Origin: Gemmatimonadota bacterium
GTDB taxonomy: Bacteria; Gemmatimonadota; Gemmatimonadetes; Palauibacterales; Palauibacteraceae
Length of the DNA: 18,671 nucleotides
Direction of reading: 5' to 3'
Assembly (NCBI GenBank): GCA_039588275.1
Contig: JBDHAC010000064.1
Span: forward strand, 1-18,671
The notes beneath the pieces are model-generated. The model saw nothing but the letters and a program-made list of their open reading frames with translations, did not search any database and was not told the DNA's origin. This document shows, piece by piece, positions 9,239 to 17,970 of this stretch. Every line of letters begins with the position of its first letter. The stretch's first letter is position 1. Both the position numbers and the translations under genes were made by a program.

Positions 9239-9934
9239 TTGCCGGACCTGACGCGACACCAGCTCGGCGCCCTCCTTCTCGCCGCGTTGCGGCACGAAGG
9301 ACTCGGGTCGCGAGATACGTTCGAAGGGCGACAGGAGCCTCTCTCCTGGTTCTTCCGGGTACTGGCGTACGACCAGTCCGAGCTCGACATCCTCGAATCC
9401 GGGGCCGTGGATACCCTGTACGCCCCATCCGCTATGGTGGAGCTGGTCATCGACGAGATGGCCCTCGGGCTGCTGAACATCGGGCGGGAGGGAGTGTCCA
9501 CGTACCTGGTTCGGGAGGCTGAGTCGGGCGCGGAGCGGTTGAGTCCGGACGCCTTCGACGTGGACCCCGACGTGATGCTCGGCTTTCTCCACATCGATGT
9601 CGCTCCCCCGTCGCTGTGGCTCGATCAACGCGAATCCAATCCGGCGCTCAATGAAGAGCTCGCTTCGGGGCTGACCGGTCTGGCTCAGGAGATCGGGACT
9701 GCCTCAGACGCAGTGGAAGTGCATATCGAGGGCGCCCTGGATCCCTCCGGAGGCTGGGCCGATCCGCAGGAGAACGTGCGCCCGGCGGGTGTCGCGATCC
9801 ACTTCAGCTTCGACATCCCACTGGTGGGCACGGAGGAGCGGGAGTTGGCGACGATCTTCAGCAGAGGAGCCGCGGTGGCCGCCGAAACGGTGGAGCGCCT
9901 GCGTTCGGTGTTCCGCATGAACGGGGACGAGTAG
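9239..9934 (+). CDS. hypothetical acidic protein
   Basis: 231-codon ORF with high GC3 and normal amino-acid composition, co-oriented with the upstream gene. The TTG start is uncertain and I recognise no motif. Confidence 0.65.
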   Translation: MPDLTRHQLGALLLAALRHEGLGSRDTFEGRQEPLSWFFRVLAYDQSELDILESGAVDTLYAPSAMVELVIDEMALGLLNIGREGVSTYLVREAESGAERLSPDAFDVDPDVMLGFLHIDVAPPSLWLDQRESNPALNEELASGLTGLAQEIGTASDAVEVHIEGALDPSGGWADPQENVRPAGVAIHFSFDIPLVGTEERELATIFSRGAAVAAETVERLRSVFRMNGDE

Positions 9935-12505: not shown

Positions 12506-14521
12506 ATGCCAGACCTCGCGCGACCCGATACCGGAACCGGATCCGACCCGGGTGACTCGTCCGCGGAGCCGCCCGAGGACCTGTGGCTGCTGATCGCGGA
12601 TTGCCAGCGCGCCCTCGAGGAGGAGATCGAGGCCGTGCGCGCCGATCTCGCCCGGCGCGGGCTCGAGGCGCCGATCCCCTCGCCCTGGGGCCGTTTGAGC
12701 CGGGACGGGGGTGCGGGCTTCGAGTACTCCTTCCAGCTCCCGGGAAGACGCCTGGACATTCGACCCGAGGATCGGGTCCGCGTGCGGGTCGACGGACGCG
12801 AGACGCTCGGGGTCGTACGCCGCCACGACCGCAGGTTGGGCGCGCTCCACGTCATCGCACCCGAGTGGCTCGGCGAACGGCTGGGCGCGTCGGAGCTGGA
12901 GTTCGACCCGACGTGGCTTCTGCGCGAGCTGTCCCTGCGGCTGGATGACATCGTGGACGCACCGGAGGCCTACTTCACCGAGACGATCCGCGGTCTGTTC
13001 GGCCGCCGGCCCCCGACCGTGGGCCGCGTCCCCGGGGACCGACCCGCCTGGCTGACGTTGAACGAGCCTCAGGTGGCGGCGCTCGAGCGCATCCTCGGGA
13101 GCGAGGTGCAGCTCGTATGGGGACCACCGGGGACGGGAAAGACCCAGTTGGTGGCGCAGGCGGCGGTGGAGCTGAGCGCCGAGGGCCGCGTACTGGTCGT
13201 CGCCGGGACGAACGGAGCCGTGGACGAGGTCGCCGCACGGATCCGCTCTCTCATGGACCCGCAGTCGATCTCCGCCAACCAGGTGATCCGGGTGGGCGCC
13301 GAGTTCGGAGGTGCCTCGGACCCCGAGCTCTCTTTGGAGGCCGCTGTACAGCGCCGGATCGAGGGTGGGGCGGGCGGCATCGCCCGCGCGCTGGACGAGC
13401 TCGAGGGCCAGCACGACCTGCGCGCCCCGGCCGGAAACGGTCCCGCCCCCGGCGCCCGGGCCCGGTTGGCTCGACTGCGCGCCGTGGCCCTCGGCGGTGA
13501 CGATCCGGGCGCGGGTCGCACGTTGGGGCGGCTGGCGGTGGCGGTCACCCGCCAGGCGATCCTGGCGCTCGAGGACGCGGACGTCGTGCTCACGACGCTC
13601 GCCCGGCTGGCCGTGCGCGAGGAGCTCCGAAACTTGCGGTTCGAATCGGTCATCCTGGACGAGGCGAGCGCGGCGCCGCTCCCCTATGCCGCCCTCGCCG
13701 CCGCGCACGCCAGGAGCCGAGCCGTGGCCGTGGGAGACTTCCAGCAGCTGCCCCCCATCGTTCAGAGCGACGGGCCTGCCGCGGATCGCTGGCTTCGGCG
13801 GGATGTCTTCCGGGAGACGGAAGTCGTGCGGGGTGGACCGTCCGGGGAGGTGGCGCTCCCGTCCCCGCGGGATGCGCTGTGCGCGATGCTCACCGTCCAG
13901 TACCGGATGGCGCCCGCGATCCGGGCTCTGGTAAGCGAGCTGTTCTATGCCGACCGGTTGGAAGACGCGCCGGAGCTGCGACGCGGGGCGCCGGGCTGGG
14001 AACCGCTCTTGCTTCTCGACACCAGCGCGCTCGACCCGCGCGTGGAGCGCCTCGAGGGCTCACGCCGGAACCGGGTGCACGCCGAGGTCGTCGTGCGGCT
14101 TCTCGAGTTGGCGGCGGACGCGGGTCTCCAGGAGGTGGCGGTGGTGTCGCCCTACCGTCAGCAGACGCGGGCCGTTCGCGAGTTGGTGACCGGTCGGTTG
14201 GGGGCGGCCGCGCCGCGCGGCCTCGAGGTGAGCACGATTCACCGGTTCCAGGGCCGTGAGAAGACCCTCGTAGTGATCGACACGGTCGACGCCCCCCCGG
14301 GTCGCAGCTGGTTCCTGGACGAGCGCCGCAACCCGGACCTCCCGCGTCTCCTGAACGTGGCGCTCTCTCGGGCGCAGGAGATGCTGGTGGTCGTCGGGTG
14401 CGTGGATGGTCTCCGCAAGACGCTCCCCCAGAGCGCGCTGCTCAATCGGGTCATCGAGCGCGTCGGGCGACACGGTCGCTCGCACCCCGCCGGCGACCTG
14501 GATCGCCTCTTTGGCCGATGA
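12506..14521 (+). CDS. superfamily 1 helicase, Upf1/DNA2/NAM7-like (AAA_11/AAA_12 type)
   Basis: Q motif LNEPQ, Walker A GPPGTGKT, Ia TNGAVDE, Walker B LDEAS, III GDFQQLPP, QYRM, SPYRQQ, V TIHRFQGREK and VI LNVALSRA. Confidence 0.92.
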   Translation: MPDLARPDTGTGSDPGDSSAEPPEDLWLLIADCQRALEEEIEAVRADLARRGLEAPIPSPWGRLSRDGGAGFEYSFQLPGRRLDIRPEDRVRVRVDGRETLGVVRRHDRRLGALHVIAPEWLGERLGASELEFDPTWLLRELSLRLDDIVDAPEAYFTETIRGLFGRRPPTVGRVPGDRPAWLTLNEPQVAALERILGSEVQLVWGPPGTGKTQLVAQAAVELSAEGRVLVVAGTNGAVDEVAARIRSLMDPQSISANQVIRVGAEFGGASDPELSLEAAVQRRIEGGAGGIARALDELEGQHDLRAPAGNGPAPGARARLARLRAVALGGDDPGAGRTLGRLAVAVTRQAILALEDADVVLTTLARLAVREELRNLRFESVILDEASAAPLPYAALAAAHARSRAVAVGDFQQLPPIVQSDGPAADRWLRRDVFRETEVVRGGPSGEVALPSPRDALCAMLTVQYRMAPAIRALVSELFYADRLEDAPELRRGAPGWEPLLLLDTSALDPRVERLEGSRRNRVHAEVVVRLLELAADAGLQEVAVVSPYRQQTRAVRELVTGRLGAAAPRGLEVSTIHRFQGREKTLVVIDTVDAPPGRSWFLDERRNPDLPRLLNVALSRAQEMLVVVGCVDGLRKTLPQSALLNRVIERVGRHGRSHPAGDLDRLFGR

Positions 14522-14588
14522 CGGTCGCGCCGTGGCCGACGACGGCGCACGGTCGGCGGCAAACCGTGGCTTTGGATCTTGAGAATCC

Positions 14589-14621
14589 GCGATCCTCAAG
14601 GGGATCGCTATCGACTTTTTT
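14589..14621 (+). terminator. possible terminator of the helicase gene
   Basis: Hairpin GCGATCC-tcaagg-GGATCGC (14589-14608). The T6 run at 14616-14621 is displaced 7 nt from the stem, so the arrangement is non-canonical. Confidence 0.35.
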
Positions 14622-14629
14622 AAAAAAGT
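14614..14629. promoter_or_regulatory. 16-bp perfect AT palindrome upstream of the ncRNA promoter (UP element or operator)
   Basis: ACTTTTTTAAAAAAGT, ending 21 bp upstream of the -35 box; near-copy at 15148-15165. Confidence 0.55.
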
Positions 14630-14650
14630 ATCATTGCGCTGTCGGCGGGG

Positions 14651-14678
14651 TTGACGCTAAAAAAATTTCTTTTATATT
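14651..14678 (+). promoter_or_regulatory. strong sigma70-type promoter with stable-RNA-like architecture
   Basis: -35 TTGACG (14651-14656), 16-bp A/T-rich spacer, -10 TATATT (14673-14678), GC-rich discriminator CCCGGC; predicted +1 near 14685. Confidence 0.8.
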
Positions 14679-14684
14679 CCCGGC

Positions 14685-14970
14685 GTGCCTTGGAAGGAGG
14701 CACCGGCCAATTCGAAAGGCCGAGGTTGTAGACGGCGCTACGGGCCGTCCGACGTGAGGTCACAAGTGCAGGGCTTAGGCTCTGACGAAGAGGCGCAAGC
14801 CTTTGGGAAAATGGGTGGCTTCGCACAGCTGGTCGGGCAGAGATGGTACCAGGTCCGTGGAGTCCCGTGAGGCCGCGCAAACGAACGGGATAGAGCTGCT
14901 GGAGCCGCAAAACATAGTCCTTCTAACTTGGCCCCTGACACCCGCAAGGGTGCGCAGGGGCTGAGTTTTT
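14685..14970 (+). ncRNA. putative ~285-nt highly structured non-coding RNA of unassigned family
   Basis: Begins at the predicted +1 with hairpin GTGCCT/AGGCAC. Further local stems: CGGCC/GGCCG, GACGGC/GCCGTC capped by C(UACG)G, AGAGGC-GCAA-GCCTTT and TCCCGT/ACGGGA. Nested long-range helices AGGGCT/AGTCCT, GGCTCT/GGAGCC and CAGCT/AGCTG. Ends in a GCAA-capped hairpin plus T-run. No convincing ORF. Confidence 0.72.
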
Positions 14971-14972
14971 CT
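14925..14972 (+). terminator. 3' terminal hairpin / intrinsic terminator of the putative ncRNA
   Basis: GGCCCCTG-a-CACCC-GCAA-GGGTG-cg-CAGGGGCT (14930-14962), extendable by AACTT/GAGTT, followed by TTTTTCT. Confidence 0.7.
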
Positions 14973-15165
14973 ATGCCTATATGGAACGTCGGGCGCTCTC
15001 CAGGCTTCGTTCTCGCGCGATCCGGGCTCGCTACAGGCTCGCTCCGTATCACGATGTGGCGCACATGCTCGAGCGCATGCCCTCCCTGTCGGTCGCCAGC
15101 CCATCAGATGGTCCTTTCCGTGTTCGCGTCGGTAAAAGGGTTTCGCGACATTTTTTAAAAAAAGT

Positions 15166-15208
15166 TGTGGATAAATTTGTGGATAAGATGTCGAAAAATT
15201 GTGAAATT
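15166..15208 (-). promoter_or_regulatory. DnaA box cluster (two perfect and two degenerate boxes)
   Basis: TGTGGATAA (reverse complement TTATCCACA) at 15166-15174 and 15178-15186; TGTCGAAAA at 15189-15197 and TGTGAAATT at 15200-15208. All are in the same orientation with an 11-12 bp period. Confidence 0.7.
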
Positions 15209-15315
15209 GTCGGCTCGAACGGGAATGTCCTGAGTGCACGAGGGAGCGCGCAGGTTTTCCCCGCGACGGCGTTTGGGGAGCGCGGGGGGAAGGTGAAGGG
15301 GCTCGGGAGAAGGGT

Positions 15316-15753
15316 ATGCGAGTCGTAGCGCAGCGCGTGAGCCGCGCGCAGGTCAGGGTGGATGGGGAGCGGGTAGGGCAGATCGGATGGGGCCTGCTGG
15401 TCCTGGTGGGGTTCGGCCCGCAAGATAACGAGGGCACGCTCCGCTGGATGGCGGAGAAGCTCTGGGGGTTGCGAGTGTTCGCGGACGACGCCGGGCGGAT
15501 GAACCGTTCGGCGTCGGAGGTGGGGGGTGGGCTGCTCGTCGTGTCCCAGTTCACGTTGTACGGGGACGCGTCCCGAGGCCTGCGGCCCTCGTTTACAGGG
15601 GCCGCCCCGCCGGAGGATGCTCGCCGCCTGTACGAGCGTTTCGTCGAGGTGTGTCGTGAGCTCGGCAGTCCTGTCGAGGAGGGCGAGTTCGGGGGGATGA
15701 TGGACGTAGAGCTCGTGAACGCCGGACCCGTAACGATCTTGCTCGAACGGTGA
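15316..15753 (+). CDS. dtd: D-aminoacyl-tRNA deacylase
   Basis: MRVVAQRV start, SQFTLYGD, RPSF, GEFGGMMDV and the Gly-cisPro motif NAGPVT; 145 aa. Confidence 0.97.
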   Translation: MRVVAQRVSRAQVRVDGERVGQIGWGLLVLVGFGPQDNEGTLRWMAEKLWGLRVFADDAGRMNRSASEVGGGLLVVSQFTLYGDASRGLRPSFTGAAPPEDARRLYERFVEVCRELGSPVEEGEFGGMMDVELVNAGPVTILLER

Positions 15754-15799
15754 TCGAGCCGTGATTGAGCCCACAGGTCCCCTTGCGCCGAGGAGTCGA

Positions 15800-16282
15800 A
15801 TGAGACCGCTTCGGATCGGAGTGATCGGTTCGGGTGACGCGACGGCCGAGGCCCAGGAGCTCGCCCGCCAGGTCGGAGCGGCCATCGCGCGCGCGGAAGC
15901 GATCGAGGTGTGCGGCGGTCTCGGGGGGGTGATGAGGGCGGCGGCGGCCGGCGCGACCGAGGATGGCGGTGTCGTCGTCGGTATCCTGCCCGGCACGAGC
16001 GCGGAGGCGGCGGCCCCCGGAGTGACCGTCCCGATTCCGACGGGCCTGGGCGAAGCCCGCAACGTCCTCGTCGTGCGGGCCTCCGAAGCGATCATCGCGA
16101 TCGCCGGTGGGTGGGGAACCATGACCGAGGCCGCCTTTGCACGGAAGTTCGGCGTTCCGGTGATCGGCCTCGCGACGAACCTGCCGGATGAGCTGGTGAC
16201 GGAGCGCGCGGACGACCCGGCCGCCGCCGTAGCGCGGGCCGTCGAGCTCGCCGAGGAGAGAAGAAGGGGGAAGCTCGCATGA
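15800..16282 (+). CDS. TIGR00725 family / LOG-like (SLOG) Rossmann-fold protein
   Basis: Motifs IGVIGSG, VCGGLGGVM, VVGILPG, TGLGEARNVLVV and GGWGTMTEA. Start moved to ATG 15800 behind AGGAG (15791-15795). Confidence 0.88.
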   Translation: MRPLRIGVIGSGDATAEAQELARQVGAAIARAEAIEVCGGLGGVMRAAAAGATEDGGVVVGILPGTSAEAAAPGVTVPIPTGLGEARNVLVVRASEAIIAIAGGWGTMTEAAFARKFGVPVIGLATNLPDELVTERADDPAAAVARAVELAEERRRGKLA

Positions 16283-16662
16283 TCGGCTACCTGTTGTTTG
16301 GCGGGATCCTGATCCTGCTCGCGATAGCGGTCGTGGCGGCAGCCGTACGGAGTGGCAAGAGCGATCAGGTAATCGCCGATCCCGTCCGCGCGCGAAAGGA
16401 TGTTGCCATCGAGGCGTTGCGCGCGCTCGAGTTCGAGTTCCAGACGGGCAAGCTTGCCGAGGAGGAGTACGGACGGCTGCGCCGAGAGCTCGAGGTGGAA
16501 GCGGTACGCGCCCGGGACGACGCGCGGGCGGGTGCACCGGCCGACCGCACCGATGACGGCGGCGGCGAATCCGCCGCCGGGCCGCCCACGTGCGCCAACT
16601 GCGGGAACGATCTGGCGGGAGGCGAGTCGTTCTGTCCCAGCTGCGGAGCGGCGCTGCGTTAG
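16279..16662 (+). CDS. membrane-anchored zinc-ribbon protein (CcmI-N-terminus-like helix plus C4 ribbon)
   Basis: N-terminal TM helix, ALRALEFEFQTGKLAEEEYGRLRRELE segment, and C-terminal CANC-x10-CPSCG. ATGA overlap with the upstream gene. Confidence 0.8.
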   Translation: MIGYLLFGGILILLAIAVVAAAVRSGKSDQVIADPVRARKDVAIEALRALEFEFQTGKLAEEEYGRLRRELEVEAVRARDDARAGAPADRTDDGGGESAAGPPTCANCGNDLAGGESFCPSCGAALR

Positions 16663-16764
16663 CTGCCGTCGAGAACCGCTGGCCGAGGGCCCGTTGAGAG
16701 CCCGTTGACCTCACGATCCACCCTTTGGAGCCCCGTTGGGCGGTTTCGGTCACACCCGAAGAAA

Positions 16765-16793
16765 TTGCGAAAGTCCGATCGGGGTGCTATCGT
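16765..16793 (+). promoter_or_regulatory. putative recA promoter
   Basis: TTGCGA (16765-16770), 17-bp spacer ending in TGn, then TATCGT (16788-16793); GGAGG RBS precedes ATG 16855. Confidence 0.55.
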
Positions 16794-16854
16794 GCGACCT
16801 GCCCGGAGCATTCCCGGTCCGAGAGACGAATCACCTTGATCTGGAGGGCGATCC

Positions 16855-17970
<1,116 letters not shown>

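Follow-up and report, generated by a model that had tools for sequence, protein, structure and literature searches.

The window analysed here, that is the whole stretch of 18,671 nucleotides, carries between two protein genes a segment for which a preliminary description had claimed an independently transcribed, large and structured non-coding RNA of an uncatalogued class. The locus raises the questions of whether such a gene exists, to which known RNA it comes closest and what its link to a nearby group of DnaA-box matches might mean. The claim is borne out by the Rfam search, the homologues, the promoter and the fold tests: the RNA gene is real and its class is uncatalogued. Comparison among loci, which are kin and not independent of each other, supports the gene, its promoter, its fold, the covariation within a palindrome and the linkage to the array.

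Genomic context, promoter and transcription

The RNA gene lies between an SF1 helicase gene and dtd (Table 1). From 12506 to 17970 all genes are in one orientation, in the order SF1 helicase, RNA cassette, dtd, SLOG-family protein, zinc-ribbon protein and recA. The TTGACG-N16-TATATT promoter of the preliminary description was recovered by the promoter scan as the sole promoter-like site called within 13500-16000 (shuffle mean 0.3), and a TTG(A/C)..-16/17/18-TANNNT promoter is located 4-9 nt 5' of the RNA in 108 of 109 distinct full-length copies, a set from which contig-end-cut and low-scoring copies were excluded. The homologues span 239-301 nt up to the end of the 3' hairpin. T-run/A-run motifs of the T6A6 type occur three times in the 4.1-Mb genome, two of them at the RNA locus; the third (G000:C2:58808-59010) is followed 120-200 bp further on by several DnaA-box matches and has no RNA homologue near it.

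Table 1. Features of the RNA locus, in coordinates of the window
Feature	Coordinates	Strand	Remarks
SF1 helicase gene (AAA_11/AAA_12), upstream neighbour	12506-14521	+	5' of the RNA in 73/92 loci
T6A6 element upstream of promoter (bend or protein site)	14616-14627	+	TTT-N0-3-AAAA at -46 to -91 in 86/94 loci
Sigma70-type promoter (-35 TTGACG, 16-bp spacer, -10 TATATT)	14651-14678	+	promoter scan
Structured non-coding RNA gene	14685-14972	+	start inferred from promoter
P1 hairpin (14685-89/14699-703)	14685-14703	+	98% canonical, nearly invariant
P2 hairpin (14704-08/14718-22)	14704-14722	+	91% canonical; double changes in 4/5 pairs; own partner better in 57/66
Central domain, closed by P3 (14724-27/14903-06) and weak P4 (14734-36/14895-97)	14724-14906	+	
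Long arm, P5 (14738-46/14852-60) and P6 (14747-53/14832-38)	14738-14860	+	
Palindrome 1, CAGCUG, unpaired in monomer, predicted intermolecular contact	14826-14831	+	core covariation
Palindrome 2, GGUACC, bulge between P6 and P5	14845-14850	+	
P9 stem (14862-68/14885-91)	14862-14891	+	91% canonical; own partner better in 64/66
Palindrome 3, GCGC in P9 loop	14875-14878	+	invariant, 109/109
Pyrimidine strand complementary to purine P1 loop 14692-98 (candidate long-range pseudoknot)	14918-14924	+	
3' hairpin P10 (14927-37/14955-65, 14939-43/14948-52), U run in this lineage	14927-14970	+	
DNA array: T6A7 followed by three DnaA-box matches of one orientation, at 15166, 15178 (exact) and 15189 (2 mismatches)	15151-15197		
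dtd (D-aminoacyl-tRNA deacylase), downstream neighbour	15316-15753	+	3' of the RNA in 73/86 loci

Open reading frames overlap the RNA region in several frames but were treated as incidental, because the homologues differ by many indels and by changes that keep pairs. Elsewhere in the window, ARAGORN called a tRNA-Leu(CAG) at 9675-9760 inside the long ORF 9239-9934, which has no Pfam match; probably either the tRNA call or the ORF is false.

Parts of the window are contained in 18 runs recorded as RNA. Transcription, which the preliminary description had proposed to look for in RNA data, was followed up in four RNA libraries from four studies, and contigs over the RNA gene were found in all four, the listed pieces lying inside 14702-14938. 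As these contigs come from relatives and DNA may be present in the libraries, they indicate presence and not level, strand or ends. Two of the runs gave a summed contig depth on the RNA of 1e4-4e5 and two of 2-11, although contig depth is no measure of expression. In the flanking bins, which include the array, dtd and most of the end of the helicase gene, contigs were scarce or absent. The runs were preselected for containing this stretch and were seen as contigs only, therefore neither the gaps in the flanks nor the depth count as evidence. One contig in RNA run X3 links 14966 back to 14690, which may reflect a circle, a concatemer or a library artefact.

Conserved secondary structure

The + strand of the RNA folds better than its shuffles (z -3.16, with 0 of 200 shuffles as good), and the - strand has no fold excess over shuffles (z -0.90). 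Individual helices were assessed on 66 sequences at <=95% identity, drawn from 101 and with a mean identity of 63%, by comparing the pairing of each sequence with its own partner strand with its pairing to the partner strands of distant homologues. The own partner was better in 66/66 sequences for P5, in 64/66 for P6, in 60/66 for P3 (80% canonical) and in 61/66 and 54/66 for the two segments of P10 (97% and 94% canonical); for P4 it was better in 53/66, with just 52% canonical pairs. The long arm is capped by a variable region (14754-14824) that contains two small hairpins. Every supported helix is also present in the structure of lowest predicted energy for the window's copy of the RNA. The conserved fold is multi-branched: P1 and P2 are followed by a long bulged arm with a side stem next to it, and the 3' hairpin comes last.

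Several helices of the preliminary description hold over the 66 homologues, namely P1, P2, 14863-68/14885-90 (95% canonical) and the 3' hairpin. It had made its structure depend on compensatory changes; the own-partner comparison supports P2, P3, P5, P6, P9 and the 3' hairpin, but not five of the helices it had listed. These were the C(UACG)G-capped stem 14731-36/14744-49, the TTGT/ACAA closure, the nested helices 14770-75/14916-21 and 14778-83/14901-06, and the CAGCT/AGCTG helix (14826-30/14894-98), all of them complementary in this sequence; with 45-65% canonical pairs across the homologues and the own partner better in only 24-36 of 66, all five were rejected. About half of the helices on its list thus give way to others, and neither the palindromes nor the array of DnaA boxes figure in it. 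Its GCAA-capped stem 14789-804 falls in a lineage-variable insertion and was not confirmed.

Two alignments were used to look at covariation. In a model-fitted alignment of 76 distinct rows (including the spurious G229), a kind of alignment that leans to its model, P5 and P6 reach 93-96% pairing and show double changes at 15 of their 16 pairs, values attained by 0 of 500 shuffles, while P9, which is misregistered there, is at 60%. A scan of a sequence-only alignment against a tree-based null gave one pair without null exceedance; the next pairs have 0.33 and 0.63 expected false pairs, and the third-ranked is no base pair. A complex conserved secondary structure with covariation, the mark of the OLE/ROOL/GOLLD/ARRPOF kind of RNA, was thus found, more weakly in the unbiased scan.

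The P1 loop and 14918-24 can form a duplex of at least 5 bp in 109/109 copies, with double changes such as GAAGGA/UCCUUC and GGAGGC/GCCUCC. In the helix test the own partner was better in just 30 of 66 sequences, i.e. without advantage over foreign strands. This pairing is a probable candidate for a 5'-to-3' pseudoknot.

The 3' hairpin had been described as a terminator. It is conserved in sequence among the homologues and is followed by a U run here, but a U-rich tail is found in just 9 of 104 homologues, in which the usual follower is (A/G)CAUC, and the terminator scan made no call at the hairpin. These comparisons point to a conserved RNA domain rather than simply a terminator.

Self-complementary segments

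The core of palindrome 1 (14827-30) is self-complementary in 109/109 copies (AGCU in 80, CGCG in 23, CUAG in 5 and CAUG in 1), compared to a background of 7.2% self-complementary 4-mers in the homologous RNAs. Neighbouring variants differ by two complementary changes, and no single-change variant was found. On the tree, at least four double-change events are needed (AGCU/CGCG, CUAG in each of the paralogue clades, and CAUG); the chance that a double change hits a symmetric pair and remains complementary is about 1 in 9 each, or about 1e-4 for four. The variants other than AGCU all come from a single genus, and the outer pair of the palindrome is unpaired in 13/74. Since neighbouring bases of the same chain are unable to pair and no intramolecular partner covering the variants was found across the homologues, the palindrome is predicted to pair between molecules. 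Covariation of adjacent bases was the criterion of Kretsch et al. for intermolecular kissing in OLE and GOLLD (PMC12286853), and palindrome 1 presents the same combination of a palindromic loop and adjacent-base covariation as the OLE/ROOL/GOLLD/ARRPOF kind. In 4 of 10 two-copy genomes the two copies differ in palindrome 1.

Palindrome 2 is GGUACC in 91 of the 109 copies, GGAUCC in 2, GGUGCC in 2 and degenerate in 8; in the remaining 6 a tetraloop hairpin stands in its place. The latter are the copies of genus g10 (L182, L183 and L195-L198), in which the array is also nearer to the RNA. The segment forms some helix, which could be inter- or intramolecular, a mini-hairpin being possible. A pairing between the tail and palindrome 2 was considered and dropped, as the GGAUCC variants do not covary with the tail. 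The GCGC of palindrome 3 is invariant and therefore beyond the reach of a covariation analysis. Taken together, the palindromes suggest pairing between copies of the RNA, and this self-pairing is well supported by comparison; the predicted contacts for self-assembly are most firmly palindrome 1 and probably also palindromes 2 and 3. That the RNA oligomerises is likely.

Relation to known RNA families and distribution

The search against Rfam 15 recommended in the preliminary description gave no match over the RNA in the window at E values up to 5. With 12 homologous loci and E values up to 10, two chance-level matches were obtained, one of which touches a 3' hairpin (E 3.8). Rfam 15 includes 6S, Ms1, raiA, OLE, ROOL, GOLLD, ARRPOF, RNase P, SRP, tmRNA, introns and riboswitches. 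The genome has its RNase P, SRP (slightly under the cut-off) and tmRNA at other loci, in agreement with the earlier reading that this RNA is none of these nor a tRNA; each of these assignments was rejected, as other loci fill those roles. Two likenesses, one between 14910-20 and the S element of group I introns and one between the 5' end and large SRP RNA, are not conserved in the alignments of homologues. No published description of the RNA was found in the literature searched, including the Palauibacterales paper (PMC10469786); motif tables supplementary to RNA-discovery papers could contain one.

Matches at the level of BLAST were found in 50 of 114 genomes of the family. A core model, which covers 147 positions instead of the full length and is limited in reach accordingly, found the RNA in 88 of 113 other family genomes and in 0 of 31 genomes of the sister family. 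In a class-wide sample the same model matched 33 of 37 family genomes and gave two weak matches (E ~5e-4) among 113 others; one of these, G229, proved on inspection of its sequence to have no full-length homologue, and the other, G166, was counted solely in the tallies. At the sensitivity used, the RNA is confined to one Gemmatimonadota family. The records of homologous loci are from Gemmatimonadota, several of them from Candidatus Palauibacter, and among the matches listed in a genome-wide pattern scan (80 titled rows) those that match the profile are all from Gemmatimonadota. No homologue was found in the collections of viral contigs, phages and plasmids. The RNA is single-copy in this genome.

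A DnaA-box array downstream of the RNA

In 98 of 105 loci the 450 bp downstream of the RNA contain a match to the DnaA-box consensus with no more than one mismatch, and upstream of the RNA such a match occurs in 0 of 94. The consensus array has a T-run/A-run followed by three boxes of one orientation (11-bp period in 89/105) and, after ~50 bp, an inverted pair. The inverted pair, ~50 bp further in the homologues, is degenerate in this genome; its spacer is 3 or 4 bp in 29 loci each and 5 bp in just 2 of 105. A pattern for the array that proved too strict was found in 0 of 5 genomes, including genomes known to carry it, and in 3 of 24 in the family. The DnaA of this genome ends in a GGRDHSTV motif, a motif with a role in the reading of DnaA boxes. 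HU/IHF-family genes are present as well. It is likely from these sequence matches that the array really binds DnaA.

In all five single-contig genomes dnaA and parS are found together, 0.91-1.02 Mb from the main RNA copy, and the array is therefore probably not oriC. The gap between dnaA and dnaN contains degenerate boxes and then CTA repeats in three genomes, repeats that we take to be DnaA-trios. In this genome, G000:C6 ~67700-68010 after dnaA has DnaA-box-like sites, CTA repeats and an AT-rich run, with the same layout in G091 and G038, and this gap is the probable oriC. No trio-like repeats were seen at the array. The RNA locus does not have the features of an oriC: it is away from dnaA/parS, the boxes and repeats are at dnaA-dnaN, and the locus is empty in G106. 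GC skew was too weak to place a switch (20 windows of 20 kb in each of two genomes). The polarity of the GGGNAGGG octamer, sampled in G091, gave an origin score of 20 on the dnaA side and of 6 at the RNA locus, with the best score, 34, near 2.75 Mb. As a separate observation, intergenic clusters of DnaA-box-like sites at G000:C9:82400-82700 and 85400-85700 contain ACAACATGTTGT palindromes, which may resemble NrdR boxes.

Gain and loss of the cassette

Ten of the 12 genomes of one genus have two full copies of the RNA. The second copy, which is not next to the helicase gene or dtd and in G038 is 0.23 Mb from dnaA, comes with a promoter and an array of its own. Both RNA and array are missing in G106 and G052, where the helicase gene abuts dtd, and in G099 a different gene precedes dtd; according to the core model the RNA is absent from the single-contig genomes G106 and G099. 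The small genome G098 has between helicase and dtd an AT-rich, decayed remnant of the 3' part of the RNA and of the array (L276:1200-1500). Promoter, RNA and array have thus been duplicated and lost together, and the cassette is dispensable to the cell.

Proposed function and alternative explanations

Overall, we give an even chance to a reading in which the RNA forms an RNA-only oligomer and its transcription is coupled to a DnaA site of the datA type. The stand-alone gene would make an RNA of 240-300 nt that folds into P1, P2, the bulged arm, the side stem and the 3' hairpin, and copies of this RNA would assemble through their self-complementary segments into an RNA-only dimer or small symmetric oligomer. 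The array, 150-250 bp downstream of the RNA, might bind and titrate or regulate DnaA in the manner of datA, and its occupancy might be set by transcription that starts at the promoter of the RNA and continues beyond the 3' hairpin, which in most homologues has no U run. This control by read-through is proposed by analogy with the read-through from glyVXY into datA, and that the RNA gene is functionally connected with the control of DnaA is put at slightly below an even chance. It is rather doubtful that a symmetric particle made beside the array scaffolds, sequesters or tunes DnaA or its DNA complex. A tetramer would have three two-fold axes, one for each of the palindromes, and switches of palindrome between two gene copies would keep their particles from mixing.

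Alternatively, the RNA may assemble with itself for reasons unrelated to replication, the array serving only to control the RNA gene: a protein bound to it, DnaA or a different one, would stop transcription as a roadblock or regulate it. DnaA can act as a roadblock for transcription termination. As 95 of 104 homologues have no U-rich tail, transcription may be ended by other means; the array accompanies the RNA and not dtd, and DnaA-box matches are also present at other intergenic sites of this genome. However, a roadblock at the array fits poorly with the presence in this genome of a U run as well as exact boxes, and with boxes that begin ~200 bp past the hairpin; the listed pieces of RNA contigs extend no further than 14938, apart from the joint at 14966. 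This explanation has perhaps one chance in a few, i.e. it is unlikely but to be taken seriously.

The preliminary description had likened the RNA to the RNA-polymerase-binding RNAs 6S and Ms1. Its own promoter and similar size agree with a divergent 6S or an Ms1 analogue, and a search with RF00013 found no 6S in this genome (G000, 86% complete) or in five other Gemmatimonadota genomes (G091, G038, G106, G130 and G151). But 6S is equally undetected in the three of these without the RNA (G106, G130 and G151), and the search finds it in only 5 of 14 controls; the phylum may have no 6S, or one that has diverged beyond the reach of RF00013. Palindromic bulges and several branches mark the conserved fold, in place of one long hairpin or rod around a central bubble; Rfam gave no match to 6S or Ms1 up to E values of 5-10, and the palindromes and the array would be left unexplained. 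We consider this relationship improbable.

Equally improbable is that the RNA primes or licenses replication at the boxes, as in ARRPOF or ColE1, the locus being then a secondary origin or what is left of a replicon that had integrated. ColE1-type origins have an RNA followed by a DnaA box, ARRPOF is dimeric, 255 nt long and within a region needed for plasmid replication, and the three tandem boxes abut an A/T run. On the other hand, a conventional oriC-like region is found at dnaA-dnaN, no trio-like repeats were seen at the array, the GGGNAGGG polarity in G091 fits the dnaA side better, the plasmid and phage collections gave no match, and the cassette has been lost in complete genomes. A selfish or catalytic, ribozyme-like element that spreads or circularises would account for the second copies at a new locus in one genus and for the contig that joins 14966 to 14690 in one run, but it is very improbable, since the duplication included the promoter and the downstream array and therefore points to a DNA-level event, the other genera have a single copy with fixed neighbours, no ribozyme family matches and the lone joint may be a library artefact.

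Natural RNA-only assemblies are few and their functions open, and this RNA family is a compact candidate for one, inexpensive to transcribe and to image. Its intermolecular contact is predicted beforehand by natural compensatory changes, the natural variants being ready controls, and the fixed link to a non-origin DnaA-box array is a concrete functional lead for an ornate RNA. If the preferred reading of a self-assembling RNA with a datA-like site is true, datA-type coupling of stable-RNA transcription to replication control extends to a distant phylum.

Comparison with known systems

The RNA would appear to work most like ARRPOF and OLE, and by model search it is a member of neither (PMC12990946, PMC5737381, bioRxiv 2026.07.01.735769). 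ARRPOF, from a Fusobacterium plasmid, is described as a homodimer of ~255 nt with a bulged complementary intermolecular helix and a pseudoknot with the 5' end (PMC12990946), and it is tied there to a plasmid replication region (PMC12990946, PMC5737381). Size, predicted self-pairing, a candidate pseudoknot with the 5' end and a replication-related tie are shared with the present RNA, here as predicted from sequence. In contrast to ARRPOF, the RNA has no Rfam similarity, is chromosomal and absent from the plasmids searched, and has another order of helices; its link is with a non-origin array of DnaA boxes and not with a replication region. In OLE, the kissing palindrome of L9.3 switches between GGCC, GAUC and AGCU (PMC12286853). 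Like OLE, ROOL and GOLLD, the RNA is predicted to have a symmetric contact whose palindrome switches sequence in evolution, but it is at most half as long as these RNAs, has no sequence or model match to them and has no partner gene that we saw alongside. With 6S and Ms1 it shares its own promoter, a length of 200-300 nt and a non-coding nature, but it is without their long rod and central bubble and without an Rfam match.

For the array, the closest counterpart is glyVXY-datA of E. coli, in which read-through from a stable-RNA unit controls a DnaA-box cluster (PMC10950094). Here too, a stable-RNA unit stands directly 5' of a DnaA-box cluster away from oriC; the upstream gene, however, is an orphan structured RNA instead of a tRNA, and the layout of the boxes differs. 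DARS1 and DARS2 of E. coli are likewise described as non-origin clusters with inverted and tandem boxes, and their core is an inverted pair with a 5-bp spacer and a third box 12 bp on (PMC11724364). The present cluster is also outside the origin and has both inverted and tandem boxes, but its tandem boxes come first, with an 11-bp period, followed by a separate inverted pair with a spacer of mostly 3-4 bp, and it did not match the DARS core. From its sequence features, the RNA thus appears to be of the ornate self-assembling kind, with a link to a DnaA array that seems to be without precedent for such RNAs.
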